DNA of 64,000 nt, from positions 21,141 through 85,140 of the forward strand of contig JBHENX010000067.1 in the NCBI GenBank assembly GCA_046261855.1. The letters run 5' to 3'. The position numbers were made by a program, and so were the translations under genes. This document shows positions 15,913 to 37,626 of this stretch, one piece after another. The stretch comes from Pyrinomonadaceae bacterium (GTDB lineage: Bacteria; Acidobacteriota; Blastocatellia; Pyrinomonadales; Pyrinomonadaceae). The notes under the pieces were generated by a model, which worked only from the letters and a program-made list of their open reading frames with translations, ran no database searches and was not told the origin of the DNA. The first letter of the stretch is position 1. Every line of letters starts with the position of its first letter.

Positions 15913-15948
15913 TCATATTTATCGAGTAGCGAACGGGGGAAAACCGAA

Positions 15949-21537: not shown

Positions 21538-22299
21538 GTGGCGGCGGGACAACAGCTCAAACTCTTTCGCAACAAACGCAATATCACGGTTCGCGAAGTC
21601 GAACAGGCAAGTCGCAGAATCGCTGAAGCGAAAGCTGATCGGCGGTACCAGATCTCTAACGGCTGGTTGGCCCAACTGGAGAATGGCGTGTCCGAGCCGA
21701 GCATCTTTAAGTTCTTCACTCTTGCGGCGACGTATCGCGTCAAACTTTGGGAGCTGCTGCGTGTCTACGGCGTTGACATCAACGAGCAGCAAGAATACGA
21801 AGCGATAGCAAATCCGCAATTGACGCAATTACTTTCGCAGAAGAGCGTCAGTAAGTGGGCGCTTGACCGTGCGACATCCGGCGACGCAACCACATTGGTT
21901 CTGGATCTCGCACGGAAACACGCCGCGCCGCCGGACGGCTCGCCTAATAACGGCGACGCGAAGGTTACCTACGGCTATCTCGGTCTGAAGGATTTGACGA
22001 TGTATCCGCTCATCAGGCCCGGTTCGCTGCTTGAGATCGACACGCATCAGAACCGGCTGCAAACGCCTTCCTGGCATAACGAGTTTGAGCGGCCGATCTA
22101 TTTTGTCGAGTTGCGCGAGGGCTACGCCTGCGGTTGGTGCGAGCTGCAAGGCAATCAACTGCTAATCATTCCGCACCACTCGTCGACGGCGAAGGTGCGC
22201 CGGTTCACCTTTCCGCGTGAGGCGGAGATTGTCGGACGCGTTGTCAGTTACTACACGCGCTGTGTAGATCATGAGCGTGAGAAATCAACAAGGGCCTGA
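21538..22299 (+). CDS. XRE-family HTH regulator with a degenerate S24-like C-terminal domain
   Basis: 253 aa with a GTG start. The HTH reads LKLFRNKRNITVREVEQAS...ISNGWLAQLENG. The C-terminal domain reads DLTMYPLIRPGSLLEIDTH...FERPIYFVELREGYACGWCEL...IVGRVVSYY. Its stop lies 2 nt before the ABC transporter start. Confidence 0.65.
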   Translation: MAAGQQLKLFRNKRNITVREVEQASRRIAEAKADRRYQISNGWLAQLENGVSEPSIFKFFTLAATYRVKLWELLRVYGVDINEQQEYEAIANPQLTQLLSQKSVSKWALDRATSGDATTLVLDLARKHAAPPDGSPNNGDAKVTYGYLGLKDLTMYPLIRPGSLLEIDTHQNRLQTPSWHNEFERPIYFVELREGYACGWCELQGNQLLIIPHHSSTAKVRRFTFPREAEIVGRVVSYYTRCVDHEREKSTRA

Positions 22300-22301
22300 C
22301 G

Positions 22302-24008
22302 ATGCGCTTCTGGCAGAACACCGAGTTGCGTTGGCTCGCAGTACGCGTCAAACCGTTCCTTCGACTTCATCTCGGCAGTTATTTCTGCATCCTGCTTTCC
22401 AGTTTTCTCGTGCTGCTCGATCCATTGATCGTGCGGTTTCTCATCGACGAGGTCATCCCCAATCGGCGCGTGAGTTGGTTGCCGTTCGTGGGAATTGCAT
22501 TTTTGTTCACTTACATGGCCCGGCTCGGCTTCGATAGCCTCGCGGGCATGCTTAACTTCGGCGCGGTGCAGAAGATGAGCTTTCGTTCGCGGCTCAGTTT
22601 GCTGCGACATCTGCAACGTCTCTCCGCCGAGTATCACGACAACCGCCCTGTGGGCGAGACGTTGCACCGGCTCCAAAATGATGTGGACCAGGTCGCCACA
22701 CTCAGCGGCGAAGTAATTCCGAGCGCGCTGCGCATGGTGACGGTGTTCACGCTCGTAATGACGACGATGCTGGTCCTGAATTATCAGCTCACGATCATTG
22801 TGTTGCCACTGGTGCCAGTTTTTATTTTGGCGCGTCGGCGGTTTCACGATCGTTTGCGTCGGGCGTCCGACTCGGTTCAGGAACAATCCGGCAAAGTGAT
22901 CGGGTTCCTCGAGGAGCACCTGTCGTCGATCGTGCAGGTGCAACTTCTTTCGTGCGAGCAGCGCGAGGCGCGCCGCTTTGCACGACTGTCGGGTAGCGCT
23001 GTGCGGGCGCAGGTAAAACGCCGCGGACTCGAACTCTTCTTCAGTGCCCTGCTCTACTTCATCATCATCACAGGCATGGCGGGCGTGCTTTGCTACGGCG
23101 GCTATCTCGTGATGTTTGGACGACTCACGCCGGGTGGACTCGTCGCCTTTTACGGCTACACCTTGCAGCTCTTCATTCCGCTCTACGGGGTTGTCGATAT
23201 CTATTCCAAGCTGCAACGCGCCGGGGCGAGTATCCGGCGCTTGATGGAGATCACCGAAGCCGACACGGTGCTGCGCGATCGTCCCGGAGCGTTGGCGCTG
23301 CAACCCGGGCGGGCCGGAGTGGTTGAGTTGAAGGATGTCTCGTTTGGTTATCAGCACTCCGAGCGGCCGGTGCTGAATGCCGTCAGTCTGCGGGTGAATG
23401 CGGGTGAGCGAGTCGCGCTTAGCGGGCGAAGCGGCAACGGCAAGAGCACCATTGCGAGACTACTGGCACGACTTTACGATGCGCGTACAGGATCGGTGTT
23501 GATCGAAGGCGTTGACGTGCGCGATGTGAAACTGAAGAGCCTGCGCTCTTCGGTGATCTTCGTGCCGCAGGACCCCGTCTTGTTTGACGTGACCCTGCGT
23601 GAAAACCTGCTCTATGGGAATACAGCCGCGAGCGAAGACGAGGTTGCGCAGGTCGCGCGACTCGCTCAACTGGAAAGCGTAATAAGTAAGTTGCCGCGTG
23701 GCTGGGACGAACCGCTTGGCCCACGCGGCAATCGTTTGTCGGGCGGCGAACGCCAACGAGTGGCGTTGGCCCGCGCATTGTTGCAACGCCCGCGCGTGCT
23801 GATTCTCGATGAATGCACCTCAGCACTCGATGCGTTAACTGAACGCTGGTTGCTTGATGGCCTCGACAGCTTTTTGCGCCACGTCACGACAATAGTTATT
23901 TCTCATCGCCCGTTCCCAACGAGTTGGGCCGACCGCGTGATCCACCTGGATTGCGGACGCATTTGTGAAGACGCTGACTCGTCCTGCTCGGTATCCGAAG
24001 CGCACTGA
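22302..24008 (+). CDS. ABC transporter, fused permease/ATPase (lasso-peptide exporter, McjD-like role)
   Basis: 568 aa. Six N-terminal TM helices are followed by Walker A GRSGNGKST, the signature LSGGERQRVALARAL and Walker B VLILDE. Confidence 0.85.
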   Translation: MRFWQNTELRWLAVRVKPFLRLHLGSYFCILLSSFLVLLDPLIVRFLIDEVIPNRRVSWLPFVGIAFLFTYMARLGFDSLAGMLNFGAVQKMSFRSRLSLLRHLQRLSAEYHDNRPVGETLHRLQNDVDQVATLSGEVIPSALRMVTVFTLVMTTMLVLNYQLTIIVLPLVPVFILARRRFHDRLRRASDSVQEQSGKVIGFLEEHLSSIVQVQLLSCEQREARRFARLSGSAVRAQVKRRGLELFFSALLYFIIITGMAGVLCYGGYLVMFGRLTPGGLVAFYGYTLQLFIPLYGVVDIYSKLQRAGASIRRLMEITEADTVLRDRPGALALQPGRAGVVELKDVSFGYQHSERPVLNAVSLRVNAGERVALSGRSGNGKSTIARLLARLYDARTGSVLIEGVDVRDVKLKSLRSSVIFVPQDPVLFDVTLRENLLYGNTAASEDEVAQVARLAQLESVISKLPRGWDEPLGPRGNRLSGGERQRVALARALLQRPRVLILDECTSALDALTERWLLDGLDSFLRHVTTIVISHRPFPTSWADRVIHLDCGRICEDADSSCSVSEAH

Positions 24009-24306
24009 ACATTTGCTTCTCAATGAGCCTCGCGAGATCTACTGCGAAAACATACTTGCTTCCAATCGCAAGCAAAGAAGAAATCTTTTTCCGCATTGGT
24101 GAGCCAGAGCGTAAAGTGCACGACGAAACTCAACTTGACATAACTAAACGCGGCATCGGGCTTTCCCCCAGAGCCTCACTCAATAGCGTTACAGGCTGAC
24201 CAGGTTTCTACCTCGCTGCTCAGTTATTGACGACGACAATTTTTTGCGAGTGCGCCTGCCGGCATGCTTGAGCTGACCGTGGTCGCGCGAGATTGAAAGC
24301 GGGCGT

Positions 24307-24381
24307 GAAGGCCACCCGCACGGTGGTGAAGAAGTGGCATCACCGGTCTGTCCGTTAACGCGGACGGTGCGGGTGGCCTTC
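24307..24381 (+). promoter_or_regulatory. 15-bp perfect inverted repeat enclosing two small hairpins, upstream of the lasso B gene
   Basis: GAAGGCCACCCGCAC (24307-24321) pairs with GTGCGGGTGGCCTTC (24367-24381). The 45-nt interior holds GGTGA..TCACC and GTCCG..CGGAC hairpins. No U-tract follows. Confidence 0.35.
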
Positions 24382-24424
24382 AAAGAGCCGGTATTTGTCT
24401 GTATTCCACCTGACGAGAAACTTT

Positions 24425-25279
24425 ATGACTGCCACAACAAACGCCGCGACCGCCGCTCCGCTCAACGCCTTTTCAGTCGTCGCGCGCAAGCACCGCGACG
24501 GCAGCGTGCTGCTCTCCGCGGCAAACGATCAAATCTTCAAACTCAACGGGGTCGGCGCGTTGACCTGGACTGTGCTCGAGCAGAGCCCGGAGCCTCTCAA
24601 GCTCAATGAGATCGTGCGGGAGTTGTACGCGCAGTTCGAAACCATGAACACCGGGGATGAAGCGCGTTACGAGGTGTCCGAGGAACAACTGAAGACGGAT
24701 ACCTCACGATTTCTCCGAAGCCTCAGTGACGCGGGCCTCGTGCAGTCGGTCAATGAAGCAAACGGCCGCGAGTCTTACCGGATCAGAGAAGGAATTAGCG
24801 GAACGACGTCGACAACGCTCGCAGAGTTAAAAGGGACTACGACGCAGACGGATGTCACGTCGCTGATAGCGCAGGCTGCGTCGCTTCCCGCAATTCGCCC
24901 GAAGATACACGAAACGTTGACCGCGCTGTTTGGTTTGTTTGCTTTTGACTTGTTGCTGCGCGTGCGTGGCTTTGACGCGTTAATCAGAAAAGTCGAGAGT
25001 TGGCCCACGGCTGAGCCTCACCGAACCGATCAGGAGATCTGCCGTCGCGTGAATGCGATGGTGACGCGCGCACAGGTTTATTACCCGAAGAAAGCGATGT
25101 GCTTGCAACACTCGGCCGTGGTGACATGTTTGTTGCGCCGCGGGGGCGTGCCGGCAGAGATGGTCCTTGCGGCGCAGGAGTTTCCACCGAAAGCGCACGC
25201 GTGGACCGAAGTCGCCGGGACTGTAGTAAATGATTATCGCCAAGTGAAAACCCGTTATCGAGAGTTAAGACGAATCTGA
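24425..25279 (+). CDS. Lasso peptide maturation protein B (fused PqqD-like RRE plus transglutaminase-like Cys protease)
   Basis: The ATG is at 24425. The N-terminal part is PqqD-like (IFKLNGVGALTWTVLEQSPEPLKLNEIVRELYAQFE...FLRSLSDAGLV). The C-terminal part is B2-type, with Cys in AMCLQHSAVV, His in KAHAWTEV and Asp in VVND. Confidence 0.8.
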   Translation: MTATTNAATAAPLNAFSVVARKHRDGSVLLSAANDQIFKLNGVGALTWTVLEQSPEPLKLNEIVRELYAQFETMNTGDEARYEVSEEQLKTDTSRFLRSLSDAGLVQSVNEANGRESYRIREGISGTTSTTLAELKGTTTQTDVTSLIAQAASLPAIRPKIHETLTALFGLFAFDLLLRVRGFDALIRKVESWPTAEPHRTDQEICRRVNAMVTRAQVYYPKKAMCLQHSAVVTCLLRRGGVPAEMVLAAQEFPPKAHAWTEVAGTVVNDYRQVKTRYRELRRI

Positions 25280-25293
25280 CCGGAGACGAATCC

Positions 25294-27228
25294 ATGAGTG
25301 CGATTGGCGCCATCTTCAACTTCCACAATCGGCCCTTCGGTGAAGAGGATCTGCGCGACTTGACAGCGCTGGGGCAGGCCTTGCGCAGGTGGGGACCAGA
25401 CGGCGGCCGGTTTGTCACGAGCGATTCGCTGGGCGTGTGTTACCAGGCTTTCAACACAACGCGGGAATCGGCTTTCGAAGAGCAACCGCTTGTCGCCCGT
25501 GACGGCCGGATGCTCGCGGCGGATGTACGTCTCGACAATCGTGAGGAATTGTTTGCGTCGACGCATCATCTGCTCGGCGCGACTCGGGAACGCGCTACAG
25601 ATGCCGACTACGTGATGGCCGCGCATGCGCGTTGGGGAACGGAGTTTCCTTTTCATCTCGTTGGTGAGTACGCGATCGTGTTCTACGACCCGCACGCGCG
25701 GACGATGTTATTGTGTCGCGATCATGTCGGCGCGCGCCCACTCTACTATCACCGCGATAACGATCGCGTGGTTGTGTCCTCGCAACTCGCGCCGCTGTTG
25801 GATGTGTTCGACATTCCACGTGACATCGATGAAGAGTACGTAGCCGGTTGCATGTCGCGCGGCCCGGCTATCGGAGTCACACCCTATAAGCACATTCATA
25901 GTGTGACGCCCGCGCATGTGCTGACCGTAACGCAATCGGGAGAGCTGCGGGAACGACGTTATTGGCAGCTCGACACAGAACGCGAGATTCGTTTGCGCAA
26001 CGACGAGGAGTATGAAGAGGCGTTTCGTTTTCATCTTCGTAACGCAGTGCAGGCGCCGTTGCGCACCGACCGCCCGGTAATGATCGAGCTCAGCGGCGGA
26101 CTCGACAGCTCGACTATCGCATGCGTCGCAGCCGACAGTATTCGCAAAGGCGAAACACAGAGCGGCCGGTTCGATACGGTGTCGTACGTCTACGACGAGT
26201 CGCCCACTTCGGACGAAAGCAGTTTCATTCAACGCGTGGAGAATTATCTTGGTCGCACCGGCATCCACGTCCGAGACGAAGACTCCAGTCTGTTTCCCCC
26301 ACCAGATCAGGATCTCGACATCGTTACTCCCAATCCGATCCTCTGCTCGTTCAACTATCACGAAGCGCTCTGCAACCTGATGCGCGAGACCGGGGCGCGC
26401 GTGCTTTTAACCGGGGTCGGTGGAGACCAGGTACTCGGGGCCAGTTACGATCCGTATCCGGAACTCGCGGACCTGCTCGTATTGAGAAAGCCATTACTTC
26501 TGCATCGCAGGTTACAACTGTGGGGCCAAACCCTGAACAAACCGTATTACTCATTGCTCTGGCACAAGACCATCGTGCCGGTCCTGCCCCGCACTGTTCA
26601 GCCGTGGTGCAGACAAACTGCGAAACGAGTACCGTCGTGGTTCAATCCCGAATTTGTGACTCGTGCAGGACTGCGTGAAAAAGAGCTGTCGCCCATCGAT
26701 CCATTCGGTTTTCGTCTTCCCAGCGGGAGAGATCAATCAGTTAGTTATTGTTCGGTGATCAAAAACCTTTCGCCGTGTCACCGGCGAGAACTGACCTCTC
26801 TCGACACTTCCTACCCCTACATGCATCGGCCACTGATCGAGTTTTTACAAGCCATACCGTTTGAACAACTGCTACGGCCGGGTGAAAACAGATCGTTGAT
26901 GCGCAGAGCGTTACACGATCTCGTGCCCGAAAAAATCCTTCGGCGACAAACTAAAGGCGATCCGACGGAAGGGCTCGCACGCGCAATGGCTCGCGAATGC
27001 TCCGCGCTTCGTTCGTTGTTCAGTGACTCGCGGGTATGTGCTTATGGCTTGATGGATAAAGCGCCCCTGCTTGCGGCGATCGACCGTGCGAAGAACGGTC
27101 TTGAAGTTTATGCCGGTGCGCTGCTCACAACGATTTCATTAGAGTTTTGGCTGCGGGCGCTGGAAAGTCGTCAGGCAGCCAAAAACTACGCCACGTTTAC
27201 CGCAATGTCACAAGCGGCGGTGGCGTAG
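25294..27228 (+). CDS. Lasso peptide cyclase C (asparagine synthetase-like, ATP-dependent lactam synthetase)
   Basis: 644 aa. An AsnB-like N-terminal domain is followed by the PP-loop ELSGGLDSSTIA and a typical AsnB-like C-terminal region. Confidence 0.85.
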   Translation: MSAIGAIFNFHNRPFGEEDLRDLTALGQALRRWGPDGGRFVTSDSLGVCYQAFNTTRESAFEEQPLVARDGRMLAADVRLDNREELFASTHHLLGATRERATDADYVMAAHARWGTEFPFHLVGEYAIVFYDPHARTMLLCRDHVGARPLYYHRDNDRVVVSSQLAPLLDVFDIPRDIDEEYVAGCMSRGPAIGVTPYKHIHSVTPAHVLTVTQSGELRERRYWQLDTEREIRLRNDEEYEEAFRFHLRNAVQAPLRTDRPVMIELSGGLDSSTIACVAADSIRKGETQSGRFDTVSYVYDESPTSDESSFIQRVENYLGRTGIHVRDEDSSLFPPPDQDLDIVTPNPILCSFNYHEALCNLMRETGARVLLTGVGGDQVLGASYDPYPELADLLVLRKPLLLHRRLQLWGQTLNKPYYSLLWHKTIVPVLPRTVQPWCRQTAKRVPSWFNPEFVTRAGLREKELSPIDPFGFRLPSGRDQSVSYCSVIKNLSPCHRRELTSLDTSYPYMHRPLIEFLQAIPFEQLLRPGENRSLMRRALHDLVPEKILRRQTKGDPTEGLARAMARECSALRSLFSDSRVCAYGLMDKAPLLAAIDRAKNGLEVYAGALLTTISLEFWLRALESRQAAKNYATFTAMSQAAVA

Positions 27229-27326
27229 ACGCGAAGAACGCTCTCTCGATACCTCGCAATGAGGTAACGACGGAGCCCGGAGATGAAACAATGCACCACC
27301 AAGTGCCCTAAACAGGAGAGTATGAA

Positions 27327-27476
27327 ATGACTGATAAATACGAAGCTGCTGAAGTGCTCGTCATTGGTAGAGCTCAGGACGTGATTCTGGGCATTAAGGA
27401 TGAGCCGATCGTGGACAATCGGACCAGCTCCGACCCGTTCAACCGGGACACACCGTCCGCCTGCTTTGACGAATAG
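27327..27476 (+). CDS. Lasso peptide precursor A1 (49 aa), not in the ORF track
   Basis: AGGAG (27314-27318) lies 8 nt before the ATG. The product is MTDKYEAAEVLVIGRAQDVILGIKDEPIVDNRTSSDPFNRDTPSACFDE. It is paralogous to A2 and lies directly downstream of the cyclase gene. Confidence 0.65.
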   Translation: MTDKYEAAEVLVIGRAQDVILGIKDEPIVDNRTSSDPFNRDTPSACFDE

Positions 27477-27628
27477 AGGCCGTTCTCGACCGGCTTTCGA
27501 CGCGGTGGGATGCGGACCGTTGAGCCGTCTACCGCATGGTACCAATGTACATGTGCGGGCAGCGGTTTAGCAGTTCGCGAGTTCGGAAATCATGGTGCCG
27601 CAAGGCGCCAAACTCAGGAGAGACTAAA

Positions 27629-27775
27629 ATGAACAACTATGAAGCTGCGGAAGTGATCGTCGTGGGAGCAGCCACTGACACGATCCTTGGTGAGAAGACC
27701 TTGCTGAAAATGGACAACGTCACCAGTGGCGACCCCTTCCTGCGAGAAGACGTGCCGGCGATGTTTGATGAGTAG
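27629..27775 (+). CDS. Lasso peptide precursor A2 (48 aa)
   Basis: AGGAG (27616-27620) lies 8 nt before the ATG at 27629. The product is MNNYEAAEVIVVGAATDTILGEKTLLKMDNVTSGDPFLREDVPAMFDE. The track ORF from 27536 is an upstream extension with no SD. Confidence 0.7.
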   Translation: MNNYEAAEVIVVGAATDTILGEKTLLKMDNVTSGDPFLREDVPAMFDE

Positions 27776-27805
27776 GATCCACATGGACTCTCATCGTCAC
27801 TGACC

Positions 27806-27850
27806 CAAGGTGGTGGATTGTTCATGCATCCGCCACCTTGATTCTTTAGC
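27806..27850. terminator. Hairpin between the convergent lasso and peptidase operons (bidirectional terminator candidate)
   Basis: CAAGGTGGTGGAT pairs with ATCCGCCACCTTG: a 13-bp stem with one G-U pair and a 9-nt loop. ATTCTTT follows on the + strand. Confidence 0.5.
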
Positions 27851-27865
27851 GTGCGGCGGCGCCCG

Positions 27866-30800
27866 TCAACGTCTTCGGTTTTTGACTCCGCCGGGCAACT
27901 CGATGATCGTTTCTGCAAGTACCACTCGCTCTTTAATCGGCTCGATGGTTTTGGTTGCAGGGTTATATTCATACCTCACCGTGGCGACATCGCGACTCAT
28001 TAGTTCGACGAGCCCGATCAGCCGCCGATTACCAAGCGGTTGAGCATCGATTCTGATGGTCGTTTCAGTTTCCGCGGTCGTTCCGCGCGCAACGGCTACA
28101 TCGGTTGTTAGAGGGAGGAGCGACCCGAATGCCGAGTGCGTGAAGACGTCGGTGTAATCGATGGTCAGGGTACTCGATGGTATCGAGACTGGATCGATTA
28201 CGACCTTCCATTTTCCACTTGTCGGTTGAGCAACGATGACCTTTTCGTCAACGCCACGACGGGCACTGAATGCCTTGAGCTCACACTCCTTCGCACAAAA
28301 ATACAAATACAGATCAACGTCTGCACCCGTTGAAGACGGCCCGCGAATAAACGCATTCAGCGACGCGGCTCCCGCGGGTACGTTGATCTCATAGACCAGG
28401 GGTTCATCTCCTTCCGCGATTGAGGCGCGAGTTGAGAAAGCGCTACCTAATGGCGACTCCGTGTACGAGCCGTTGAACGAAGCAAATTGATTGGTAAACC
28501 GGATGTGTTGCTTGTTCGGTTCTTCTCGCACGGCGGTCATGAGTTGACGTGGTAATGAGTTGGATTCAGCGGCGAACACGGCCGCTGTGATAATGAACTT
28601 CGCGCGCAGGGCCGCTGAATGTCCCGGAATCAACAGGTTCTGGTTTTCGACGATCACCTGCCAGACACCGGGTTCAGGATCGGTGATGATCCGGTCCAAA
28701 GTTCCTCCAGTTTGGTATTCAGGCTGCCACCGAACAGGTCTATCGCGGCCGTGGTCAAACTCTTTGCCGGTGGGACGCATGAATCGCATCTTGATCGTCC
28801 CGGCCTGTATTTTCGCTTCGACTTTAAAGGCGGATGTATTTGTCGGAACGTTGAAGAAGTAAGACGTGTAACCTGGATATTCTGCAGAGCCTTCGCGCGT
28901 CACAGTGTAATCTTTGGCCGGGGTAAACTGCTCCGCGGCAACTACTGTGTTCATGACCTGATAAACGGAACGTGCTCCACCGGGTTCGTCAAGATTAAGT
29001 ATCGAGCTGTGCGCCCCCGGAGTTTTCGCTGCGATTCGTATTGGAAGCGCAACGGGTGTGTTCAGCGGAAGTTGAATAGTGTCGGGGCTGTGAAAGACGC
29101 CGTCATTGCCGGACCAGCGCACCATGTAATTCGTCGGTGCAGCGTTCCCGGACGTTCGTGTAAAGGTGATTGTTCGTTGGCCGGATTGACCTGCTTGCCA
29201 ACCTTCTCGTTCGTAGATACCTGGGCCGTGATTGGGATTCTTCAAATAAGGACCAACCGCTACGTTTATTTCCGTCGAGCTCGAAATAGTGACCGGCGCC
29301 GGCGCTCGTTTGAGCGCTTCCCATGCAGCCGCAACATTTATCAATCCATTGCCCTGCTCATTTGCGCCGATACCTGAAAGGTAACGAGCACTCGACTTCA
29401 ACGCCCAGGCTATTCTGTCCGCGTCGTAAGGAACTCCGCTTTGCTTGGCCGCGCTAATAAGTAACGCCGCCGCCCCCGAGGCCATAGGGCACGCGTTAGA
29501 TGTACCCATACCCGAACTGTATCCGGGCGGCAGCTTGAATGGCGCAGGTATTCGAGACTCATAATTCCCAAAATCCGCCCCGATAGTTGCTGCCGGAGCG
29601 ATCAGATCGGGTTTGAAGCCCCCATCTGCTCGTGGACCACGCGCAGACAGATTCACTACTGCGTCTTCTGCGGCCGTGATGGCGCCGTAATTCGACTGCC
29701 AGGTAAGCCTGTTTATATAACCGCCCACACTGATCACTTTATCTGCGGCCGCCGGCTCACCATTAGTACTTATTCCTGGTCCATAGTTGTCAGCACTCGC
29801 AAAAATCGGCTTCTTATATTTGTCGATTAGCCGGCGAAAGATCACACCGACTACGGAGTTGCCATCCTGAGGCGGCATTAACGCCGCCCATTGCAAACTG
29901 ACCAGATCAACCTTGGGGTTTTTAACCGCAAGGATCATTGTTTCGACGAATGAGTGGGTGATCGACTTTCTCAGTACTGAGACGATCTGCGACCCCGGCG
30001 CAACACCGCTCATCTCGCCTCCGAAAAATTTGGAGCCTGCAGCGATGCTCGCAGTCGATGTAGCGTGTCCATTCACAATTGGCGCGAGATAGATGAGCTT
30101 GTGTTGCGGATAAGTCAGAATGGTAAACGCAACCGTCTCGCGTAAAGGAGTCTGGGGATTGTCTTTTCCCAGGATGCCAGGCCGGTAAGAAGAATTGAAG
30201 TCGGTCACCGCGGTTTCATCGGCAAAGCTATGGTCCTGGTTTGTGTCCAGCCACACCCGGTTACTCTCTTCGTTCCAAAGAACTACAAGCGAATTATCGT
30301 TTTGCTTGAGTTGTGGCAAATACGTTCGCAACAAGCCGGCGCCGAACGCGCTGATATCAAAAAAGCCGATTCGGTATGTTCCGTCGGCCGGACTCCGATA
30401 GGCCGTTTGCTTCCATTCAAAGCTTGCATTCCGAGCTTCAACCTGGTTCGACATATCGATTCTGAATGAAGATTCGTCATCCAGCAGATCAAGCGCATTT
30501 ATGACGTCTGAGAACTTTGGTATCGGAGTACCGTCGATTGAAAAAGCCGTTTGCAACTCGGGCGCAAGCATGTCCGGAGAGTTTCCGTCCACATTGGCAA
30601 TGGTGACGCCGCGTCCATCGAACGTTGGATGGTCACGAATGAACTGCGGAGCGCCGATGTCTCTTATAGGAAGATATGAGTTTTCGCGCGGTGTTGTTGC
30701 ATCCGGCGGCGGCGCGCTCTTTGGGGCAGCACTAACAGGTATATCCTGGGACGTGTCATACATTTGCACACCATCCAGCGCCATTACCTGGACAGCATTT

Positions 30801-31144
30801 AACCGCGCCACATCATCGACGCGATTGGTCGACACTTTGACGCGCAGATAATCGACGGCATCTTCGCGAAAGCGTATGACTGCTCCAAGCTTTACAAGTT
30901 CCTGAGCGACTGCGGGGTTGGCACCCGGCATTGCCACCAGCAGTAGCATGACTTCGCTTTTGCCTTGCAGCTTCGCCGCTATCACTCGTTCGCGATCGAT
31001 CTTTCGCAGCTTCGTGACTGATGGTCCTGATTGTGCAGCGCCATGACTTATGTCTGCCGTCGCCGGTTGAGTAAAAGTGTTAACTGAAAACAACCCGAGC
31101 AGGAGCACAAGGCTTTGAGCACTGGCTACGCGTCTGTTGTTCAA
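27866..31144 (-). CDS. Secreted S8 (subtilisin-family) serine peptidase, 1092 aa, with a C-terminal pre-peptidase-type beta domain
   Basis: A TTG at 31144 follows TAA-AGGAG of the upstream gene and gives LNNRRVASAQSLVLLLGLFSVNTFTQPATA. Catalytic-type motifs are IANVDGN, VNGHATSTASIAAG and GMGTSNACPMASGAAALL. DVDLYLY lies near the C-terminus. Confidence 0.8.
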   Translation of the reverse strand: MNNRRVASAQSLVLLLGLFSVNTFTQPATADISHGAAQSGPSVTKLRKIDRERVIAAKLQGKSEVMLLLVAMPGANPAVAQELVKLGAVIRFREDAVDYLRVKVSTNRVDDVARLNAVQVMALDGVQMYDTSQDIPVSAAPKSAPPPDATTPRENSYLPIRDIGAPQFIRDHPTFDGRGVTIANVDGNSPDMLAPELQTAFSIDGTPIPKFSDVINALDLLDDESSFRIDMSNQVEARNASFEWKQTAYRSPADGTYRIGFFDISAFGAGLLRTYLPQLKQNDNSLVVLWNEESNRVWLDTNQDHSFADETAVTDFNSSYRPGILGKDNPQTPLRETVAFTILTYPQHKLIYLAPIVNGHATSTASIAAGSKFFGGEMSGVAPGSQIVSVLRKSITHSFVETMILAVKNPKVDLVSLQWAALMPPQDGNSVVGVIFRRLIDKYKKPIFASADNYGPGISTNGEPAAADKVISVGGYINRLTWQSNYGAITAAEDAVVNLSARGPRADGGFKPDLIAPAATIGADFGNYESRIPAPFKLPPGYSSGMGTSNACPMASGAAALLISAAKQSGVPYDADRIAWALKSSARYLSGIGANEQGNGLINVAAAWEALKRAPAPVTISSSTEINVAVGPYLKNPNHGPGIYEREGWQAGQSGQRTITFTRTSGNAAPTNYMVRWSGNDGVFHSPDTIQLPLNTPVALPIRIAAKTPGAHSSILNLDEPGGARSVYQVMNTVVAAEQFTPAKDYTVTREGSAEYPGYTSYFFNVPTNTSAFKVEAKIQAGTIKMRFMRPTGKEFDHGRDRPVRWQPEYQTGGTLDRIITDPEPGVWQVIVENQNLLIPGHSAALRAKFIITAAVFAAESNSLPRQLMTAVREEPNKQHIRFTNQFASFNGSYTESPLGSAFSTRASIAEGDEPLVYEINVPAGAASLNAFIRGPSSTGADVDLYLYFCAKECELKAFSARRGVDEKVIVAQPTSGKWKVVIDPVSIPSSTLTIDYTDVFTHSAFGSLLPLTTDVAVARGTTAETETTIRIDAQPLGNRRLIGLVELMSRDVATVRYEYNPATKTIEPIKERVVLAETIIELPGGVKNRRR

Positions 31145-31154
31145 TGCCGCTCCT

Positions 31155-34100
31155 TTAGAACCGCAGAATGATCGCGAACTGAAACGAACGTGGGCCGCCA
31201 ATTTGATAGAGTGGGTTTAGACCACTAAGTTGCGAGGCCTGCATGTTCGTTGCCTGGCCAAAAGTTGTGCTGGTTAAGTTCGCGTTGATAGTTCCGAAGT
31301 TCGGATGGTTGAAGACATTGAACGCTTCGGCCCTGAATTGAAGAGAGAATCCTTCCGTCAATTTGAACTGGCGGCGCAACGCCAAATCAACCTGCCAGGC
31401 GGGCAACCCACGAATAGCGTTACGGCCCAAACTCCCTTGTTGATTCGGTAGCGGAATTGAAAATGCAGCCCGGTTGACTGTTCGCCCCCCGGGAAACCTT
31501 TCATCTTCGATATAGACCGGCACCCCCTCAATCAGGTTTGCACGACGCGCGATTTGAGTGCCGTCAGCGGGATCGATAATCGTGCCGGAAGTAACGTTCA
31601 ACGGCAGCGCCGTTTGCGCATTGAACCGGGTATCGATGGACCATCGACGAAGGATCGCTCCAGCAAATCCATCTGATTTCAATACGGGGAGGTCGTAAGT
31701 AACGGCGCCGGCAAGGTTGTGACGAATATCAAAATCCGATGGACCACGCAGCAAAATATTACTGACCGTATCTTGAGAGACCACATCGATGGCCTTGGCC
31801 CAGGTATATGAAGCAAGCGCCTGGACTCCGCGCGTCAGGCGGCGCTGAAACTGGACCTGCAAGGCGTGATAATCCGATGTGGCATCGTTGGTGACGAGCC
31901 GTACCGTGGAGAAATTTGGGTTGAACGGGGTAACTGTCAGCGCTCGCTGAACCAGCAATCTTCGTCCGGCATTACCAACATACGTCGTGGTGAGCGTTTG
32001 CTCTTGTCCCAGTGACTGCTCGAGAGCGAAAGTCCACTGCAAGGTATAAGGCAGTTTCAGATTGGGATCGAAAGTAACCAATGTCCCATAACGCGGAGCC
32101 CGCGTGAAAACGGGTGGAGCAACCAGGGCGGGAGTTAACGGCAAAACCACATTCGTTTGAATGCGAGAGGGGACGAACGGAAATTGAGAAAACCCGGCCG
32201 AACCCTGCGAATTACCCGTATCGTAAAAGACGCCGAAGCCGCCGCGCATCATTGTCTCGCGCCCTGCTTTCTCGAACAGTCGAAAAGCAACTCCGAACCG
32301 TGGCGCAATGTTATTGAACGTCGTCTTCCACAATGGAGTGCCCTCTGGGGCTAAAGCCAGCGACGGCAGATTCTCCAAATTGACTATTGCTAACGGATCG
32401 TTTCCGTTGGCTTCAGTCGGCGCGGGGTTCACGTCCCATCGCACGCCATAATCGAGAGTGAGGCGCCGAGACACTTTCCAGGCGTTTCTTACGAAGGCGG
32501 AGAACTCGTTGTAGATCGGTCGCGTTTCCATACCCGCGCCTATCTGGGCCAGCGATGCTACGCCGTTGTTCACTTCCGCCTGCGATTGAAATAAGAGTGC
32601 GAGGATGTAAGAGCGCGGAGAGAGTACGGGAGCAAGCCTTCTGTAATCAGCTCCAAATTTCCATTGATGCGCTCCGGTCGTAATCGAGAAAGTGTTGACC
32701 ACATTGAACTGGCGCTGCGCCACCGCGCTCCTATTAACACTGACCTGCGGAAACACACCCGTCGACATCCCGGTCACAAAAAATGTACTACCGGCATTCG
32801 CACTATTCTGAGCCGACGCAAACTGAGGCAACACGAGAAAATCAGGCGACAGCGGAACCGAGCCGCCAAACCCATCTTGTCGCTGGAAAATGCGACCTGC
32901 ATTGCGACTGAAATTAATCCTCAGCTCATTAGTAATCGTCGGTGTAAAAAGCATCGTCGCGCCCGTGGTAAACACTTGTTGCCGCAGCTCAGTAACGTCG
33001 ATTGTGCTGAGATTGCTGGCTCCGTCCCGGCGCTCACTCGATGAAGGAGCATGGTTGTATCTGCCGAATATCGTGAAGCGATTACTGACCGTGTGATCGA
33101 CTCGAATGCTGGTCGCATTCAGCGTACTCGCGTCGGAATAGCTTGCTGAAAATTCGGCAAAGCCGTTTGCCAGAGTGCGGCCGTTCGGCACAGGAAACGC
33201 GTTTAGTAATGGACGGATACCCGGAGCTGCCGTCTGACGCAGGCTAACCGACGGCACATTGGTTAGCGCGAATTTAGGATTGCGTAATCGTAGTCCTTCG
33301 TACGAAATGAAAAAGAAGGTTCTATTCCGGCCGTTATACCACGGCTGCGAACCGCCCTCGCCGAAACGCGGCAGCAAAACTGGACCACCAAACGTGCCCC
33401 CAAAATCATTCTGCCGTTCAGGCGGTCGCGCCTGCCCCGCACGATTCGCAAACCAGTCGTTGGCGTCGAGCTTGTCATTCCGCAGGTACTCGAAGAGTGA
33501 ACCGTGAAATTCATTGCTGCCCGAGCGCGTCACGATCGATATCTGACCACCGGAAGAACGCCCGTATTCAGCCGAGTAGGTCGAGGTCTGCACCTGAAAC
33601 TCCTGCATCGCTTCAACCGACACCATGCCGTTGGTACCGCCAAACGTCGTGAGCGCCGGGAGTGTGCCGCTCGTTGCCTGTCCGGGTACCGTGCCGGCTC
33701 CGTTACCGGTGTTCGCGCTTACGCCATCAACCATAAAGTTGTTCGCATTGGGGCGTTGTCCATTGACGCTAAACTGCCCACTGTTTCCAGACTGCGAACT
33801 GGGAACAGTCACGATTCCCGGCGTAAGTGTGATCAACTGCTGAAAACTCCGGCCGTTGAGCGGCAGATTCTCGACAAACTGCCGGTCGACAGTCGTGCCA
33901 ACTGCGGGTGACTCATCGAGCAGCGCCGGCGTGTCAATCACGTCGACCGTTTGCCCATCAATGCTCCCGACCTTCAACTGAATTTTTAACGACACGCGAT
34001 CGTTGACGTTCAGCACCACGTCGCGCATCTGGACGGCCGTGAAGCCTTCGCGTTCCGCTTTCACGACGTAGTTGCCGACTGGCAACAGCGGAACGATGAA

Positions 34101-34292
34101 AGAGCCGTCTTCATCAGTGACCGTAGATCTCTGAAACGCATTCGCGATGTTAATAATGGCGATGTTTACGCCAGGAACGACCGCGTCATTCTGATCAGTA
34201 ACGGTTCCGGTCAGAGTCGCACTCGGGCTCTGGGCCATAACCACCACGCTCATCGATGCCACTAAAAGAAATGAACTAAGAAAAAGACGCAA
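31155..34292 (-). CDS. TonB-dependent receptor-like outer-membrane barrel with an N-terminal CarboxypepD_reg domain
   Basis: A probable TTG start at 34292 gives the signal peptide (M)RLFLSSFLLVASMSVVVMAQ. The longest ORF reaches 34415. LTGTVTDQNDAVVPGVNIAI..DGSFIVPLLPVGNYVV is CarboxypepD_reg-like. A plug-like region follows (VENLPLNGRSFQQLITLTPG), and the protein ends in ILRF with a terminal aromatic residue. Confidence 0.75.
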   Translation of the reverse strand: MRLFLSSFLLVASMSVVVMAQSPSATLTGTVTDQNDAVVPGVNIAIINIANAFQRSTVTDEDGSFIVPLLPVGNYVVKAEREGFTAVQMRDVVLNVNDRVSLKIQLKVGSIDGQTVDVIDTPALLDESPAVGTTVDRQFVENLPLNGRSFQQLITLTPGIVTVPSSQSGNSGQFSVNGQRPNANNFMVDGVSANTGNGAGTVPGQATSGTLPALTTFGGTNGMVSVEAMQEFQVQTSTYSAEYGRSSGGQISIVTRSGSNEFHGSLFEYLRNDKLDANDWFANRAGQARPPERQNDFGGTFGGPVLLPRFGEGGSQPWYNGRNRTFFFISYEGLRLRNPKFALTNVPSVSLRQTAAPGIRPLLNAFPVPNGRTLANGFAEFSASYSDASTLNATSIRVDHTVSNRFTIFGRYNHAPSSSERRDGASNLSTIDVTELRQQVFTTGATMLFTPTITNELRINFSRNAGRIFQRQDGFGGSVPLSPDFLVLPQFASAQNSANAGSTFFVTGMSTGVFPQVSVNRSAVAQRQFNVVNTFSITTGAHQWKFGADYRRLAPVLSPRSYILALLFQSQAEVNNGVASLAQIGAGMETRPIYNEFSAFVRNAWKVSRRLTLDYGVRWDVNPAPTEANGNDPLAIVNLENLPSLALAPEGTPLWKTTFNNIAPRFGVAFRLFEKAGRETMMRGGFGVFYDTGNSQGSAGFSQFPFVPSRIQTNVVLPLTPALVAPPVFTRAPRYGTLVTFDPNLKLPYTLQWTFALEQSLGQEQTLTTTYVGNAGRRLLVQRALTVTPFNPNFSTVRLVTNDATSDYHALQVQFQRRLTRGVQALASYTWAKAIDVVSQDTVSNILLRGPSDFDIRHNLAGAVTYDLPVLKSDGFAGAILRRWSIDTRFNAQTALPLNVTSGTIIDPADGTQIARRANLIEGVPVYIEDERFPGGRTVNRAAFSIPLPNQQGSLGRNAIRGLPAWQVDLALRRQFKLTEGFSLQFRAEAFNVFNHPNFGTINANLTSTTFGQATNMQASQLSGLNPLYQIGGPRSFQFAIILRF

Positions 34293-34596
34293 AAAAAAGG
34301 GACCAACGTGGTCCGGCACACTCAGGTTAGCGAGCGTGAATGAGGTTGAGTGTTTGATGCTTGTTCTGTCGTGAGGACAGAAGACAACCGGACAGACTTC
34401 TGGGCTGCTGGGCATGTTGCTCCTCCTGTGTGTATATACACGCTTCGCGGGCGATCAAAGCGCGGGAGTTCTTGTTTTCAGCCCCGCCCATCCTGCCCTG
34501 GGATCGCACAGGGGCGGAGCTGCCGGCCTGCCTAATCTACCCAGCCCCACTCAGCCTGCCCTGGTTGCAGCATGAGAAGGGCTGAAAGGCCCCTTC

Positions 34597-37500: not shown

Positions 37501-37626
37501 TTCCGCCGCGTCACGCTGCTGGTTAGTCAACCGCAACGCCCACGCGAGCATGATTTCATAGCGCTCAGTGAAGAGCTGTTCTCTAGTCGGTTCCGACTGT
37601 GCCGCCGCGCGGCGTTGATCGAACAT
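34597..37626 (-). CDS. Single-polypeptide ECF sigma factor / ZAS-type anti-sigma / TM / large extracytoplasmic domain
   Basis: 1009 aa. Region 2 reads DAAEDLVQDAFVQFM..GYLRRLLRNLYLSR. Region 4 reads LILRFFLDYLPTEIASVLGSSRHCVDQWQRLARREV. The HxxxCxxC motif is HIVSCRSC. The TM helix is PAMLTVLAVPVLVGAFLIY, at about residues 480-505. About 500 aa lie beyond the membrane. Confidence 0.7.
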   Translation of the reverse strand: MFDQRRAAAQSEPTREQLFTERYEIMLAWALRLTNQQRDAAEDLVQDAFVQFMLARRQLENVENINGYLRRLLRNLYLSRVTRVSQRLHDSALSIADYDTFRLGWTAIEPPRRMQAAEDLQQICAYACFRKESSRAGSVLILRFFLDYLPTEIASVLGSSRHCVDQWQRLARREVKVFMDDPRRLRFVDNTTTAVCSWSGYSSSDSDLMVALRGMIFSSHRGACLSKEELEAAYAAAKTDALSTAELAHIVSCRSCLDVVNAMLALPLLAERYPAEDCSRNEPPRDAGGSGGSGGMTTVLPKRFKRRLREIREHKPSELRIAVNGVPLSSFKVTSDFCEFDLNLAADEPIEFVEILSEQGVQLLFLSIDEDAVESEQRAEIELSDGRTLDLCVQPNNGPRLHVVYNDPVVDFSSADVVGESYLSSPLTLVPKARARRLVDVLKRVCARDVVAEESGRPSATTSLGLFGQPPVQGARWWNSPAMLTVLAVPVLVGAFLIYNTNLHTTPVASSLLAQAIVAEAERASVPDQVVHRSINLEVRRSSEGALVARHTIASWENRDRGQRIQRLYDESGGLVAAAAQAADGARTVYRHHAKVPQSQSAEPDGLLLDLDQVWQLTPSVQDFNTLIADPEDATVEQRTSSYVVSFEKERTVGASRLVKATLTLARSDLRAMEQTLVIQRGDELVEYKFVVTKSEVFSPKEVPNVFEIEPELLGKEPAGNTAVGHAVLKKDAGLPSTASASAFASTELEIDVAYLLSQAKADRNEQVALTRSASGSLRVEGVVDTPERREEFLRVLSPVSNNPAVSIQIRTVAEAANQKVNAEKQLVRETEETSNTSAVEEELRAYFEKRGGSREAVDESVRSYSSRVVNHSYRALFHAVELKRLVERFARVDMRAVTPDARSKWLAMMRDHANAWARETAALRGELSPVFFSGAAAEEAEDFSINSDADLTRAIERLHRLALANNEAIGQAFTISARSSAAAFKAPQFKRSLEVAARLSNRISEYSP

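Follow-up and report, generated by a model that had tools for sequence, protein, structure and literature searches.

The 64,000-nucleotide stretch of DNA analysed here (the window) comes from a Pyrinomonadaceae MAG (class Blastocatellia, phylum Acidobacteriota) and holds, at 21538-27775, what by its sequence is a genuine, uncharacterised lasso-peptide gene cluster of a soil acidobacterium. The genes at 27866-37626 run towards this cluster as a convergent operon; their products are a single protein in which an ECF sigma factor is fused to an anti-sigma part, a TonB-dependent transporter of the Oar type, and an S8 peptidase that is TPPII-like and secreted (Table 1). We consider it likely that the cluster and the convergent module together form a lasso locus of the isopeptidase type in which the peptidase is a non-homologous one. 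An earlier note on this DNA had proposed both the lasso-peptide cluster and the acidobacterial host, and our analysis bears out both; the novelty lies in the sigma/transporter/S8 module beyond the coordinates of that note, as the B-C-A gene order is already known for the phylum.

Table 1. Features of the lasso-peptide cluster, the convergent operon and their surroundings (positions in the window)
Feature	Position	Strand	Details
PAS histidine kinase	18789-19931	+	HisKA, HATPase_c, PAS domains
REC-domain protein	19711-21258 (longest ORF)	+	Response_reg only
XRE-like regulator	21538..22299	+	253 aa; weak N-terminal HTH, C-terminal domain of ~150 aa
D, half-size ABC exporter	22302..24008	+	568 aa; transmembrane domain, nucleotide-binding domain
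Structured element in D-B spacer (24009-24424)	24288..24393	+	conserved; covariance model
B, fused PqqD-like RRE and transglutaminase-like Cys protease	24425..25279	+	284 aa from ATG
C, Asn-synthetase-like lasso cyclase	25294..27228	+	644 aa; PF00733, NF033535
A1 precursor	27327..27476	+	49 aa; MTDKYEAAEVLVIGRAQDVIL (leader), GIKDEPIVDNRTSSDPFNRDTPSACFDE (core); predicted ring G1-D9
A2 precursor	27629..27775	+	48 aa; MNNYEAAEVIVVGAATDTIL (leader), GEKTLLKMDNVTSGDPFLREDVPAMFDE (core); predicted ring G1-D9
12-bp hairpin between convergent A2 and S8 genes	27808..27842		read from sequence
TPPII-like S8 subtilase, secreted	27866..31201	-	longest ORF 1111 aa; Peptidase_S8
Oar-subclass TonB-dependent transporter	31155..34415	-	1086 aa; CarboxypepD_reg N-terminal extension, Plug, beta-barrel
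Fused ECF sigma/anti-sigma-like transmembrane protein	34597..37626	-	1009 aa; Sigma70_r2
Small protein	38230..38769	+	179 aa; paralogue of XRE-like regulator C-terminal domain
ImmR/ImmA-like (DdrO/IrrE-like) pair, adjoining sigma gene	38773..39746	-	Peptidase_M78, HTH
M78 metallopeptidase of the pair	38773-39357	-	Peptidase_M78 E 6.9e-8
HTH protein of the pair	39354-39746	-	

All five co-directional plus-strand genes of the cluster were found where the earlier note had placed them, and the translations contain the motifs it had named in D (GRSGNGKST, LSGGERQ and VLILDE), in B (AMCLQHS, AHAWTEV and VVND) and in the PP-loop of C (SGGLDSS). Its description of the genes as tightly spaced fits the regulator-D (2 nt) and B-C (14 nt) gaps but not the one between D and B, a conserved spacer of ~416 nt; C and A1 are 98 nt apart, and A1 and A2 152 nt. 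The longest ORF for B (24395-25279) begins at a TTG at 24395, with the ATG at 24425 as the likely start. Among the Pfam families that had been suggested for searching, B matched PqqD (PF05402; 42.4 bits, cut-off 23.4) and Transglut_core3 (PF13471; 69.6, cut-off 26), while C matched Asn_synthase (PF00733; E 5.2e-33) in addition to GATase_7 and GATase_6. B also exceeded the cut-off of the lasso-specific NF033537 (59.5 against 33). For C, the lasso cyclase NF033535 was by a wide margin the top NCBIfam model (E 9.5e-95; TIGR01536, AsnB, gave 1.9e-45), although the score lay below that model's cut-off (318 against 525 bits). The N-terminus of C is MSAIG, so the Cys nucleophile that glutamine-hydrolysing Asn synthetases carry is missing. 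Across 11 B proteins, down to ~31% identity, the catalytic Cys (xCLQ) and His (HAW) never vary, and 10 of the 11 retain the Asp of VVND; weak matches of B to the lasso B1 structures 5v1u and 9x90 were also observed.

The two short ORFs at the 3' end proved to be paralogous, as the earlier note had described them: they are 56% identical, each is preceded by an AGGAG Shine-Dalgarno sequence, and they are members of a family that counts at least 132 database sequences. They are therefore real genes rather than chance ORFs. A1 is identical to NCBI ABR594_18740 and A2 is ABR594_18745, both annotated as hypothetical proteins. Residue conservation, counted over 120 family members, is close to complete in the leader (Y(-17) 120, A(-14) 120, G(-8) 119, I(-2) 119, L(-1) 119) and extends into the core (G1, K3 and D9 120 each, N10 112); 119 of the 120 precursors end in F-[DE]-E. 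The 20-21-aa leaders of A1 and A2 keep the canonical register Y(-17)...G(-8)...(-2), with Ala in place of Pro at -14 and Ile in place of Thr at -2, an atypical combination that the earlier note had missed. Experiments on another lasso system have confirmed an Ile at -2, and the same residue has been predicted for Acidobacteriaceae (PMC10368454). As the cores of the family are acidic, 27-29 aa long and share invariant G1, K3 and D9 with the C-terminal F-[DE]-E, we predict a 9-residue G1-D9 ring in both precursors and lasso masses of 3106.394 Da for A1 and 3135.489 Da for A2. The hairpin that follows A2 is a candidate bidirectional terminator; the same 12-bp hairpin was found in one related locus (L001), and a consensus terminator scan overall gave nothing above chance.

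From homology and the invariant residues, we infer the biosynthetic steps of what looks like a functional class II-type lasso-peptide cluster. The leaders of the ribosomal precursors A1 and A2 would be bound by the N-terminal PqqD-like domain of the fused B, whose Cys-His-Asp transglutaminase-like domain would cut after Leu(-1) and free Gly1 of a strongly acidic 28-aa core. The ATP-dependent cyclase C would then activate the Asp9 side chain and link it, around the tail, to the amine of Gly1; the product, a lasso of ~3.1 kDa with a 9-residue macrolactam, would be exported by D. That the small ORFs are not lasso precursors, or that the cluster is a decayed remnant making no product, strikes us as very improbable. 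No product is known, the leader departs from the canonical Pro(-14) and Thr(-2), C falls below the NCBIfam lasso-cyclase cut-off, and comparable clusters of soil Acidobacteria failed in published heterologous expression (PMC9064862). Against this, every ORF is intact, both precursors have Shine-Dalgarno sites, at least 120 variants point to strong purifying selection with the leader register, G1 and D9 exactly kept, B has retained its catalytic residues and C its PP-loop, and Ile(-2) is a proven functional variant (PMC10368454).

D carries ABC_membrane (E 1.6e-42) and ABC_tran (E 3.6e-32) domains and no C39 peptidase domain, and in a PDB search it resembled ABCB/MsbA/Sav1866 generically. It is present in 8 relatives (L001, L004-L007, L011, L014/L019, L018, L086) and absent from L002/L003/L009, L087 and L088; unlike the convergent S8 module, D is dispensable among family members. 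Alignment of the D-B spacer revealed conserved blocks, and its structured element consists of a long stem (GAAGGCCACCCG...CGGGTGGCCTTC) around an invariant GGTGAAGAAGTGG and a variable hairpin. The covariance model of this element found exactly one sense-strand copy per D-B spacer in 8 loci, including the divergent L014 (59.7 bits), with 94.5% of cells paired and 7 pairs changed on both sides; the spacer had no Rfam match at E<=5.

Among the upstream regulatory genes, only the XRE-like gene is consistently linked to the cluster. It has matches to HTH_3, HTH_19 and HTH_31, each under the Pfam cut-off, its best PDB matches are DdrO HTH domains at an insignificant E of 0.16, and its C-terminal domain matched no family. 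The stop codon of this gene lies 2 nt ahead of the D start, to which it is translationally coupled, and homologs with 60-85% identity lie directly 5' of D in seven loci (L004, L005, L006, L007, L011, L018, L086); in L088 the gene sits upstream of B. The dedicated control by a PAS kinase and a REC-HTH protein that the earlier note had proposed finds no support in conservation: the REC domain is there, Pfam showed no HTH in that protein even at E<=1, and the pair lies upstream only in the near-identical relatives L005 and L086, with REC alone in L018 and neither gene in L004, L006, L011, L002 or L088. Because this neighbourhood is variable, the kinase and REC protein are probably outside the unit.

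A conserved S8/TonB-dependent transporter/sigma module lies directly downstream of the precursors and had been missed by the earlier note. NCBI calls the S8 peptidase as 1092 aa with a start near 31144; by eye, it comprises a signal peptide, an I9-like propeptide, a catalytic domain with a long insert between Asp and His, and C-terminal beta-sandwich domains. It matches Peptidase_S8 (E 1e-21) with D204, H378 and S567 invariant, and both its best PDB sequence match (E 7e-19) and the top Foldseek hit (E 5e-36, 1105 columns) of its AF2 model (pLDDT 84, pTM 0.85) are tripeptidyl-peptidase II, 3lxu. The transporter (PF13620 E 2.1e-18, PF07715 E 1.4e-7, PF25183 E 2.5e-151) lacks the STN signalling domain used by sigma-coupled transducers, and its gene always lies between the sigma and peptidase genes in the loci compared. 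The protein that NCBI names 'RNA polymerase sigma factor' combines an ECF sigma domain (~14-176; TIGR02937 42.0 bits against a cut-off of 42.9, TIGR02985 E 6.5e-13) and an HxxxCxxC motif (AHIVSCRSC) with a TM helix at ~481-503 and a periplasmic region, ~500 aa long, that includes a LolA-like domain. The AF2 model of this protein is poor overall (pLDDT 62), with residues 510-716 confident and matching LolA folds (E ~1e-5).

In 7/7 contexts of the family (the window, L002/L003, L004, L005, L086, L087 and L088), the S8, transporter and sigma genes follow B-C-A(-A) convergently, while the upstream flanks differ and D is missing in three; the S8 gene is also convergent to the precursors in 6/6 loci of close S8 orthologues. 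Judged from these gene orders, the convergent operon is inherited together with B-C-A, and the conserved unit is larger than the lasso cluster, which makes up half of it. In a reciprocal scan with S8, a lasso cyclase lay convergent to S8 in 6/6 loci with an S8 identity of >=60%, in 5/7 at 40-60%, in 1/9 at 33-40% and in 3/11 at 20-33%; this most distant group includes clusters whose cyclase is only ~30% identical to C of the window. Precursors of the distant clusters share V/I(-2), G1, Asp-Asn after the ring and an acidic C-terminus.

Two sibling loci, L089 and L090, encode sigma (55-56% identity), transporter (48-49%) and cyclase (42-43%) homologs, and in the S8 slot they hold an S9 peptidase that in the PDB matched AtxE2 best (E 1e-65 over the full length) and the sphingopyxin isopeptidase next. 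By homology, the operon of the window is related to sibling sigma-transporter-peptidase operons with an AtxE2-type homolog in the peptidase slot. Both siblings also have HTH and M78 genes beside the sigma gene, with an equivalent of the small protein between M78 and sigma (tblastn, XRE residues 148-239); the M78 gene has the same place in L002/L003 and L088. S8 occurs in tandem with an AtxE2-like S9 in L028 and alongside another S9 in L014, so S8 may not open the ring; no AtxE2-like gene was found within the 64-kb window. In the window a TPR gene flanks the regulator end of the block; in L006 and L009 it flanks the sigma end, and the block appears to have been inverted as a unit relative to it.

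These comparisons also bear on whether the S8/transporter/sigma operon is an ordinary protein- or peptide-foraging locus that lies beside the lasso cluster by shared ancestry, with no functional tie. S8 homologs with the same transporter and sigma genes occur in four loci (L061, L024, L012, L023) with no lasso genes within 10 kb and with amidohydrolases or S9 peptidases as neighbours, which marks the module as a general peptide-handling unit. CarboxypepD_reg-type transporters and S8 peptidases are common in the phylum, L002 and L087 have a second such transporter upstream, and the close relatives are all from one family, Pyrinomonadaceae, so part of the synteny comes from shared ancestry. We nevertheless regard this explanation as quite unlikely, since adjacency and convergence persist while upstream flanks, D presence and precursor number vary, adjacency recurs where the cyclase is only 30-44% identical, the block was apparently inverted as a unit, and an AtxE2-type isopeptidase homolog occupies the same operon slot in sibling loci. 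To our knowledge, isopeptidases of the AtxE2 type are active on lasso peptides only.

By analogy, the locus is most likely a version, in Acidobacteria, of the isopeptidase-type 'catch and release' lasso loci of Proteobacteria, and we infer that S8 functions as a lasso-handling peptidase. The secreted peptide would be re-imported across the outer membrane by the TonB-dependent transporter, sensed via the periplasmic domain of the sigma/anti-sigma protein, and hydrolysed by S8, which would either replace an isopeptidase or digest the opened peptide. An observation against this mechanism is that the transporter is of the Oar subclass without STN, and Myxococcus Oar serves to export an S8 protease, not to import a ligand (PMC6434023). 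The transporter could instead serve for export across the outer membrane, with S8, the lasso peptide or both as cargo; extracellular S8 would then trim the conserved acidic lasso tail, or the peptide would regulate or inhibit S8. The Oar architecture with its CarboxypepD_reg N-terminal extension and lack of STN, the Oar-dependent secretion of subtilisin-like PopC (PMC6434023), the propeptide-like domain and signal-peptide-like N-terminus of S8, and the nearly invariant F-[DE]-E, which fits a recognition motif, all point this way, as does the absence of D from some members, which would need another export route. However, PopC has no signal peptide whereas this S8 appears to carry one, import and export are equally compatible with our data, and in sibling loci the partner of the same transporter is a homolog of lasso isopeptidases, which favours degradation over maturation; we judge a role in secretion or maturation unlikely.

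The precursors-last order, which the earlier note had thought unusual, is already published for soil Acidobacteria and so is not novel, and every relative compared has B-C-A(-A). In the gene tables of Negri et al. (2022, PMC9064862) the orders are B1-kinase-B2-C-A1-A2 and D1-D2-B1-B2-C-A, given as gene numbers only; according to that paper, the A, B1, B2 and C genes of the second cluster are co-oriented and its D genes were obtained in a separate amplification. Those clusters (BGCs 482.1 and 44.1) resemble ours in phylum, in listing the precursors last, in two precursor genes of ~141-150 bp, in a non-Thr residue at -2 and in that no product was detected; they differ in having split B1/B2, where B is fused here, and a two-gene ABC transporter or kinase, and no link to a peptidase/transporter/sigma module was reported for them. 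Ile/Val in place of Thr at the penultimate leader position is shared with Bradymonas bsf and predicted Acidobacteriaceae precursors (Duan et al. 2023), and for BsfA it was shown by experiment to be the true cleavage context (PMC10368454). The bsf cluster has split B1/B2 and a kinase phosphorylating Ser3, which the window cluster lacks, and it keeps YxxPxL, where Pro(-14) is Ala in 120/120 members of our family. Oar/PopC of Myxococcus xanthus, likened here by class, functionally pairs a CarboxypepD_reg-extended TonB-dependent transporter with a subtilisin-like S8 (PMC6434023), but PopC, a protein of 50.8 kDa (~470-480 aa), lacks a signal peptide and any likeness to TPPII, and neither a RiPP cluster nor a sigma factor is involved.

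The closest parallel in gene content is with the isopeptidase clusters of Proteobacteria (astexins/AtxE2, sphingopyxin I, rubrinodin), in which A, B and C adjoin a dedicated peptidase, a TonB-dependent transporter and a sigma/anti-sigma pair; the rubrinodin cluster, like the window, also has an ABC exporter (PMC9266682). Our locus differs from these in having a TPPII-like S8 subtilase rather than an S9 prolyl-oligopeptidase-family isopeptidase, an XRE-like rather than a GntR regulator, sigma and anti-sigma fused in one protein, an Oar-type transporter without STN, the order (D)-B-C-A rather than A-C-B, Ile(-2) and Ala(-14) in the leader, and an acidobacterial rather than a proteobacterial host. 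Like the window cores, the astexins are long-tailed and acidic, and their 9-residue Asp ring is closed on G1.

The analysis confirmed that this region is a lasso-peptide biosynthetic cluster, a new member of this class that has yet to be characterised. The motif strings that had been quoted for its proteins were all found in the translations, and in the profile searches that had been proposed, B passed both Transglut_core3 (PF13471; 69.6 bits, cut-off 26) and, at residues 37-82, the PqqD-like RiPP recognition element model (PF05402; 42.4 bits, cut-off 23.4), and C passed Asn_synthase (PF00733). Failure of B and C against lasso-specific models, which the earlier note had named as counting against its reading, did not occur: B scored 59.5 bits on the lasso-specific NCBIfam model NF033537 (cut-off 33), and the best NCBIfam model for C was the lasso cyclase NF033535 (E-value 9.5e-95, versus 1.9e-45 for AsnB), at 318.5 bits, which lies under the curated cut-off of 525. 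On the lasso-specific PqqD models NF033530 and NF033536, B reached ~25 bits, under their cut-offs, and a PDB sequence search with B matched lasso B1 structures only below threshold. Among the aligned B proteins the catalytic Cys and His are invariant and the Asp is present in 10 of 11; the same alignment points to the ATG at 24425 as the likely start of B, in agreement with its orthologues. C keeps the PP-loop SGGLDSS, and as its N-terminus reads MSAIG it does not have the N-terminal Cys nucleophile of glutamine-hydrolysing Asn synthetases. Searches of Pfam, NCBIfam and PDB identified D as a generic ABCB/MsbA-type exporter with no peptidase domain.

Features of the lasso-peptide region (positions in the window) and copies of the D-B element in related loci (positions in the locus named)
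Feature	Position	Strand	Basis or remarks
XRE-like regulator, 253 aa	21538-22299	+	ORF map, translation
D, ABC half-transporter, 568 aa	22302-24008	+	ORF map, translation
Conserved D-B element	spacer 24009-24424, core 24288-24393	+	spacer comparison
B, PqqD/transglutaminase fusion	24395-25279 (longest ORF)	+	ORF map, translation
C, Asn-synthetase-like, 644 aa	25294-27228	+	ORF map, translation
A1, small ORF	27327-27476	+	AGGAG ribosome-binding site
A2, small ORF	27629-27775	+	AGGAG ribosome-binding site
S8 peptidase	27866-31201	-	directly downstream of precursors, convergent
TonB-dependent transporter	31155-34415	-	CarboxypepD_reg, Plug, OMP_b-brl_4 barrel
Sigma protein, 1009 aa	34597-37626	-	ECF sigma, HxxxCxxC, one TM helix, ~500-aa periplasmic half
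HTH protein (130 aa) and M78 metallopeptidase, ImmR/ImmA-like (DdrO/IrrE-like) pair, with 179-aa paralogue of regulator C-terminal domain	38230-39746		beside sigma gene
D-B element copies	L001 952-1060; L004 6999-7110; L005 6964-7068; L086 6970-7077	+	
D-B element copies	L006 16739-16850; L007 6601-6710; L014 21102-21217	-	

The host is acidobacterial, as had been supposed, since Pyrinomonadaceae belong to class Blastocatellia of the phylum Acidobacteriota. NCBI already lists the A1 and A2 products, with identical sequences, as ABR594_18740 and ABR594_18745 of a Pyrinomonadaceae MAG. A search of public assemblies for the exact cyclase sequence returned no match, and the single match in the species-representative genome set was L001, a locus of another Pyrinomonadaceae MAG with a cyclase 71% identical. 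The order of genes had been put forward as unusual. We found (D)-B-C-A(-A) in every relative fetched, and soil acidobacterial clusters have already been listed as B1-kinase-B2-C-A1-A2 and D1-D2-B1-B2-C-A (PMC9064862); the order is therefore no novelty, and the finding in its first form, an oddly ordered lasso cluster, is ordinary. Heterologous expression of those published clusters was unsuccessful (PMC9064862).

Control of the cluster by the upstream PAS kinase and REC protein, also proposed earlier, was not borne out, as these genes are conserved only in the near-identical loci L005 and L086, with REC alone in L018. The second of these proteins, described as REC-HTH, does have a REC domain, and Pfam found neither an HTH nor any other domain in its C-terminal 285 aa. 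It is the XRE-like gene that is conserved across relatives, coupled to D; its C-terminal domain had no Pfam match, and in a PDB sequence search the matches of the regulator were to DdrO and insignificant. Farther upstream, genes for an HlyD-type membrane-fusion protein, a TetR regulator, a glycine-rich collagen-like small protein and a holin-X-like protein (13206-16422) appear unrelated to the cluster.

The description of the genes as tightly spaced holds for regulator and D (2 nt) and for B and C (14 nt), and fails for the gap of ~416 nt between D and B. This spacer contains a conserved and probably structured element, in which a ~13-bp stem, GAAGGCCACCCG/CGGGTGGCCTTC, lies around an invariant GGTGAAGAAGTGG and a hairpin of locus-variable sequence. 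Loci that carry the element have a single sense-strand copy, even where the B protein is just 34% identical, and none was found in loci without D or in the related locus L011. It may act as RNA, in cis-regulation or processing, or as a palindrome bound by protein; Rfam holds no family matching the spacer, and scans of 21200-28000 for consensus promoters and terminators gave no excess over shuffled expectation.

Searching with a profile built from four precursors gave 132 proteins, of which all named ones are from Pyrinomonadaceae; the counts that follow are over the 120 sequences listed. These share the leader consensus M..(K)YEAAE[VLI]xxxG.A.D.IL, with Y(-17) and A(-14) each in 120/120 and G(-8), I(-2) and L(-1) each in 119/120. 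The core is 27-29 aa long, with G1, K3 and D9 invariant, N10 in 112 of 120, a C-terminal F-[DE]-E in 119 of 120 and a mean net charge of -5.4. The register of Y(-17), G(-8) and position -2 is exactly that of the canonical lasso leader YxxPxLx3Gx5Tx, from which the family departs in two places, Pro(-14) to Ala and Thr(-2) to Ile. Apart from these departures, the precursors agree with the usual lasso pattern, their G1 and D9 fitting a core that begins with Gly, Ala, Ser or Cys and has an Asp or Glu at position 7-9. Experiments have confirmed a leader with Ile(-2) in Bradymonas, and such leaders are also predicted in Acidobacteriaceae (PMC10368454). Given this precedent and the canonical register, we put the cleavage site behind Leu(-1) and expect a nine-residue G1-D9 ring; lassos of this kind would have a mass of 3106.394 Da for A1 and 3135.489 Da for A2. 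As A1-like and A2-like leader types both recur through the family, the duplication is old. The L018 precursor would begin with Asp if cleaved in the usual register.

Directly following the precursors, and convergent to them, are the S8 peptidase, transporter and sigma genes. In the S8 alignment, D204, H378 and S567 are invariant, with a long Asp-His insert and a spacing like that of tripeptidyl-peptidase II (TPP II), an enzyme that takes off N-terminal tripeptides. TPP II (3lxu) was also the best PDB sequence match (E-value 7e-19), and the AlphaFold model of S8 (pLDDT 84, pTM 0.85) matched 3lxu far ahead of other subtilases (E-value 5e-36, 1105 columns, TMq 0.50). Judged from its sequence, S8 seems to begin with a Sec signal peptide, after which comes a propeptide-like domain. 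We considered S8 as the leader peptidase and rejected this role, because the B triad is intact and S8 appears to be exported. As a lasso peptide has no free N-terminus before its ring is opened, S8 may act after an isopeptidase or may have gained ring-opening activity of its own.

The transporter is of the Oar rather than the FecA/STN type. Since the Oar protein of Myxococcus exports the S8 protease PopC (PMC6434023), transport in the window's system could run in either direction. The sigma protein scored 0.9 bit under the cut-off of TIGR02937, and its periplasmic half had no Pfam match. Its model is poor overall (pLDDT 62, pTM 0.33), and we used solely the confident, LolA-like segment at residues 510-716, a predicted fold that would suit a periplasmic ligand-binding sensor. 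Beside the sigma gene, the HTH-M78 pair is accompanied by a 179-aa paralogue of the regulator C-terminal domain (38230-39746), an assembly that suggests a proteolytic switch on XRE-type regulators. L002, L088, L089 and L090 all have the M78 gene at this position, L089 and L090 with the HTH gene as well; retention of the pair and the paralogue beside the sigma gene points to a conserved unit of ~21538-39746.

The linkage of this module to lasso genes recurs. Six further contigs obtained from precursor look-ups each have B-C-A(-A) followed by the S8/transporter/sigma trio, with variable genes upstream (Ku-Ku-MatE, a methyltransferase or TPR-kinase-REC); D and the regulator are both missing in L002/L003 and L087, and L088 has the regulator without D. 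For the reciprocal test, a scan of metagenomes with the S8 alignment gave 80 loci, of which we counted only those extending far enough downstream. S8 was followed by a convergent lasso cyclase in 6/6 loci at >=60% S8 identity, 5/7 at 40-60%, 1/9 at 33-40% and 3/11 at 20-33%. In the distant positives (L048, L049, L057, L021 and L022) the cyclases are 24-37% identical to that of the window, and the precursors keep V/I(-2), G1, an acidic C-terminus and, behind the ring, Asp-Asn. Copies of S8 that are free of lasso genes adjoin amidohydrolases or S9 peptidases. From these counts, the S8 subfamily is tied to lasso clusters recurrently, not exclusively. Our literature search found no report of this association; a prior mention is possible in Tietz 2017, Kretsch 2023 or Chekan 2016. 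A conserved TPR gene lies at the regulator/D end in the window (17402-18625) and at the sigma end in L006 (361-1581) and L009 (785-2011), so that the whole lasso-plus-peptidase block seems to have been inverted as one piece between lineages. In L057 an APH-family kinase gene (3496-4833, minus strand) sits between S8 and two precursors, and this kinase resembles those of the published acidobacterial cluster 482.1 and of phosphorylated-lasso-peptide clusters.

We reached two loci, L089 and L090, through homologues of the sigma protein (55-56% identity); in both, another peptidase fills the S8 position. There the order is HTH, M78, sigma, transporter and S9 peptidase, convergent to another S9 gene, three to five precursor genes and a cyclase gene, with transporters 48-49% and cyclases 42-43% identical to those of the window. 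The S9 protein in the slot had as its best PDB match, over its full length, AtxE2 (E-value 1e-65), the structurally characterised lasso isopeptidase, and as its second the sphingopyxin I isopeptidase. Isopeptidases are reported to hydrolyse solely peptides of the cluster to which they belong. An AtxE2-like gene is carried by L089, L090 and L028, and none was found in the window by tblastn with the L089 protein (E<=1). L028 has the AtxE2-like S9 and S8 in tandem after the transporter, an arrangement that suggests S8 may act downstream of an isopeptidase; in loci lacking S9, S8 may instead have gained the ability to open rings. S8 is joined by a different S9 in L014; we did not count this S9 as an isopeptidase, as its closest match is the acylaminoacyl peptidase 5l8s and AtxE2 is not among the 60 matches listed. 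In L014/L019 (13246-20206, minus strand) this acylaminoacyl-peptidase-like gene lies between S8 and four precursors, with two tandem cyclase genes; L018 also has two cyclases. The precursors in L089 (20675-21437, minus strand) and L090 (20796-22298, minus strand) keep G1 and K3 and have a conserved Asp at core position 11 (in one case 10), and some are without an acidic residue at 7-9, such as GSKPVNLFQVD; this implies either a ring above the known 7-9 residues or another cleavage site.

The real distinction of the cluster is thus its non-canonical leader together with its conserved coupling to a module of S8 peptidase, Oar-type transporter and fused sigma protein. The module parallels isopeptidase-type loci, and we infer the biochemical roles of its proteins. 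A further-reaching proposal, which we advance tentatively and consider rather unlikely as a whole, is that the TPPII-like S8 is a lasso-peptide hydrolase of a new kind, with no homology to the known one, which took over or extends the S9 isopeptidase role in one acidobacterial lineage, and that with the Oar-type transporter and one-protein sigma/anti-sigma sensor it closes a cycle of secretion, re-uptake and degradation (or signalling) for highly acidic lassos with a conserved tail, peptides that could carry metal or a signal rather than be antibiotics. Acidobacteriota are among the most abundant soil phyla, and our literature search found no characterised lasso peptide from them. The design of lasso genes with peptidase, TonB-dependent transporter and sigma factor is present outside Proteobacteria, and its peptidase slot can hold either an AtxE2-like S9 or a TPPII-like S8 enzyme, an exchange that offers a natural comparison for the roles of peptidase and transporter. 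The tightly conserved precursor family, with at least 130 variants and Ile(-2)/Ala(-14) leaders, provides material on how the B recognition element and protease read non-canonical leaders. Isopeptidase-associated lasso peptides are still termed enigmatic in their biological role (PMC9266682).

Proteobacterial isopeptidase clusters comprise a peptidase, a TonB-dependent transporter and a sigma/anti-sigma pair (PMC9266682), and the HTH/M78-sigma-transporter-peptidase arrangement mirrors them. AtxE-type loci have an S9 isopeptidase of the prolyl-oligopeptidase family beside the cluster, whereas the window has S8; in both, a TonB-dependent transporter adjoins the peptidase, that of the window being of the Oar subclass. 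The sigma/anti-sigma pair adjacent to AtxE-type clusters is replaced in the window by a single fused 1009-aa protein, and where AtxE-type loci lack an ABC exporter and have a GntR regulator ahead of the precursor, the window has D and the XRE-like regulator. L002, L087 and L088 are without D, as in AtxE-type loci, among which the rubrinodin cluster is the published exception, adding an ABC exporter (PMC9266682).
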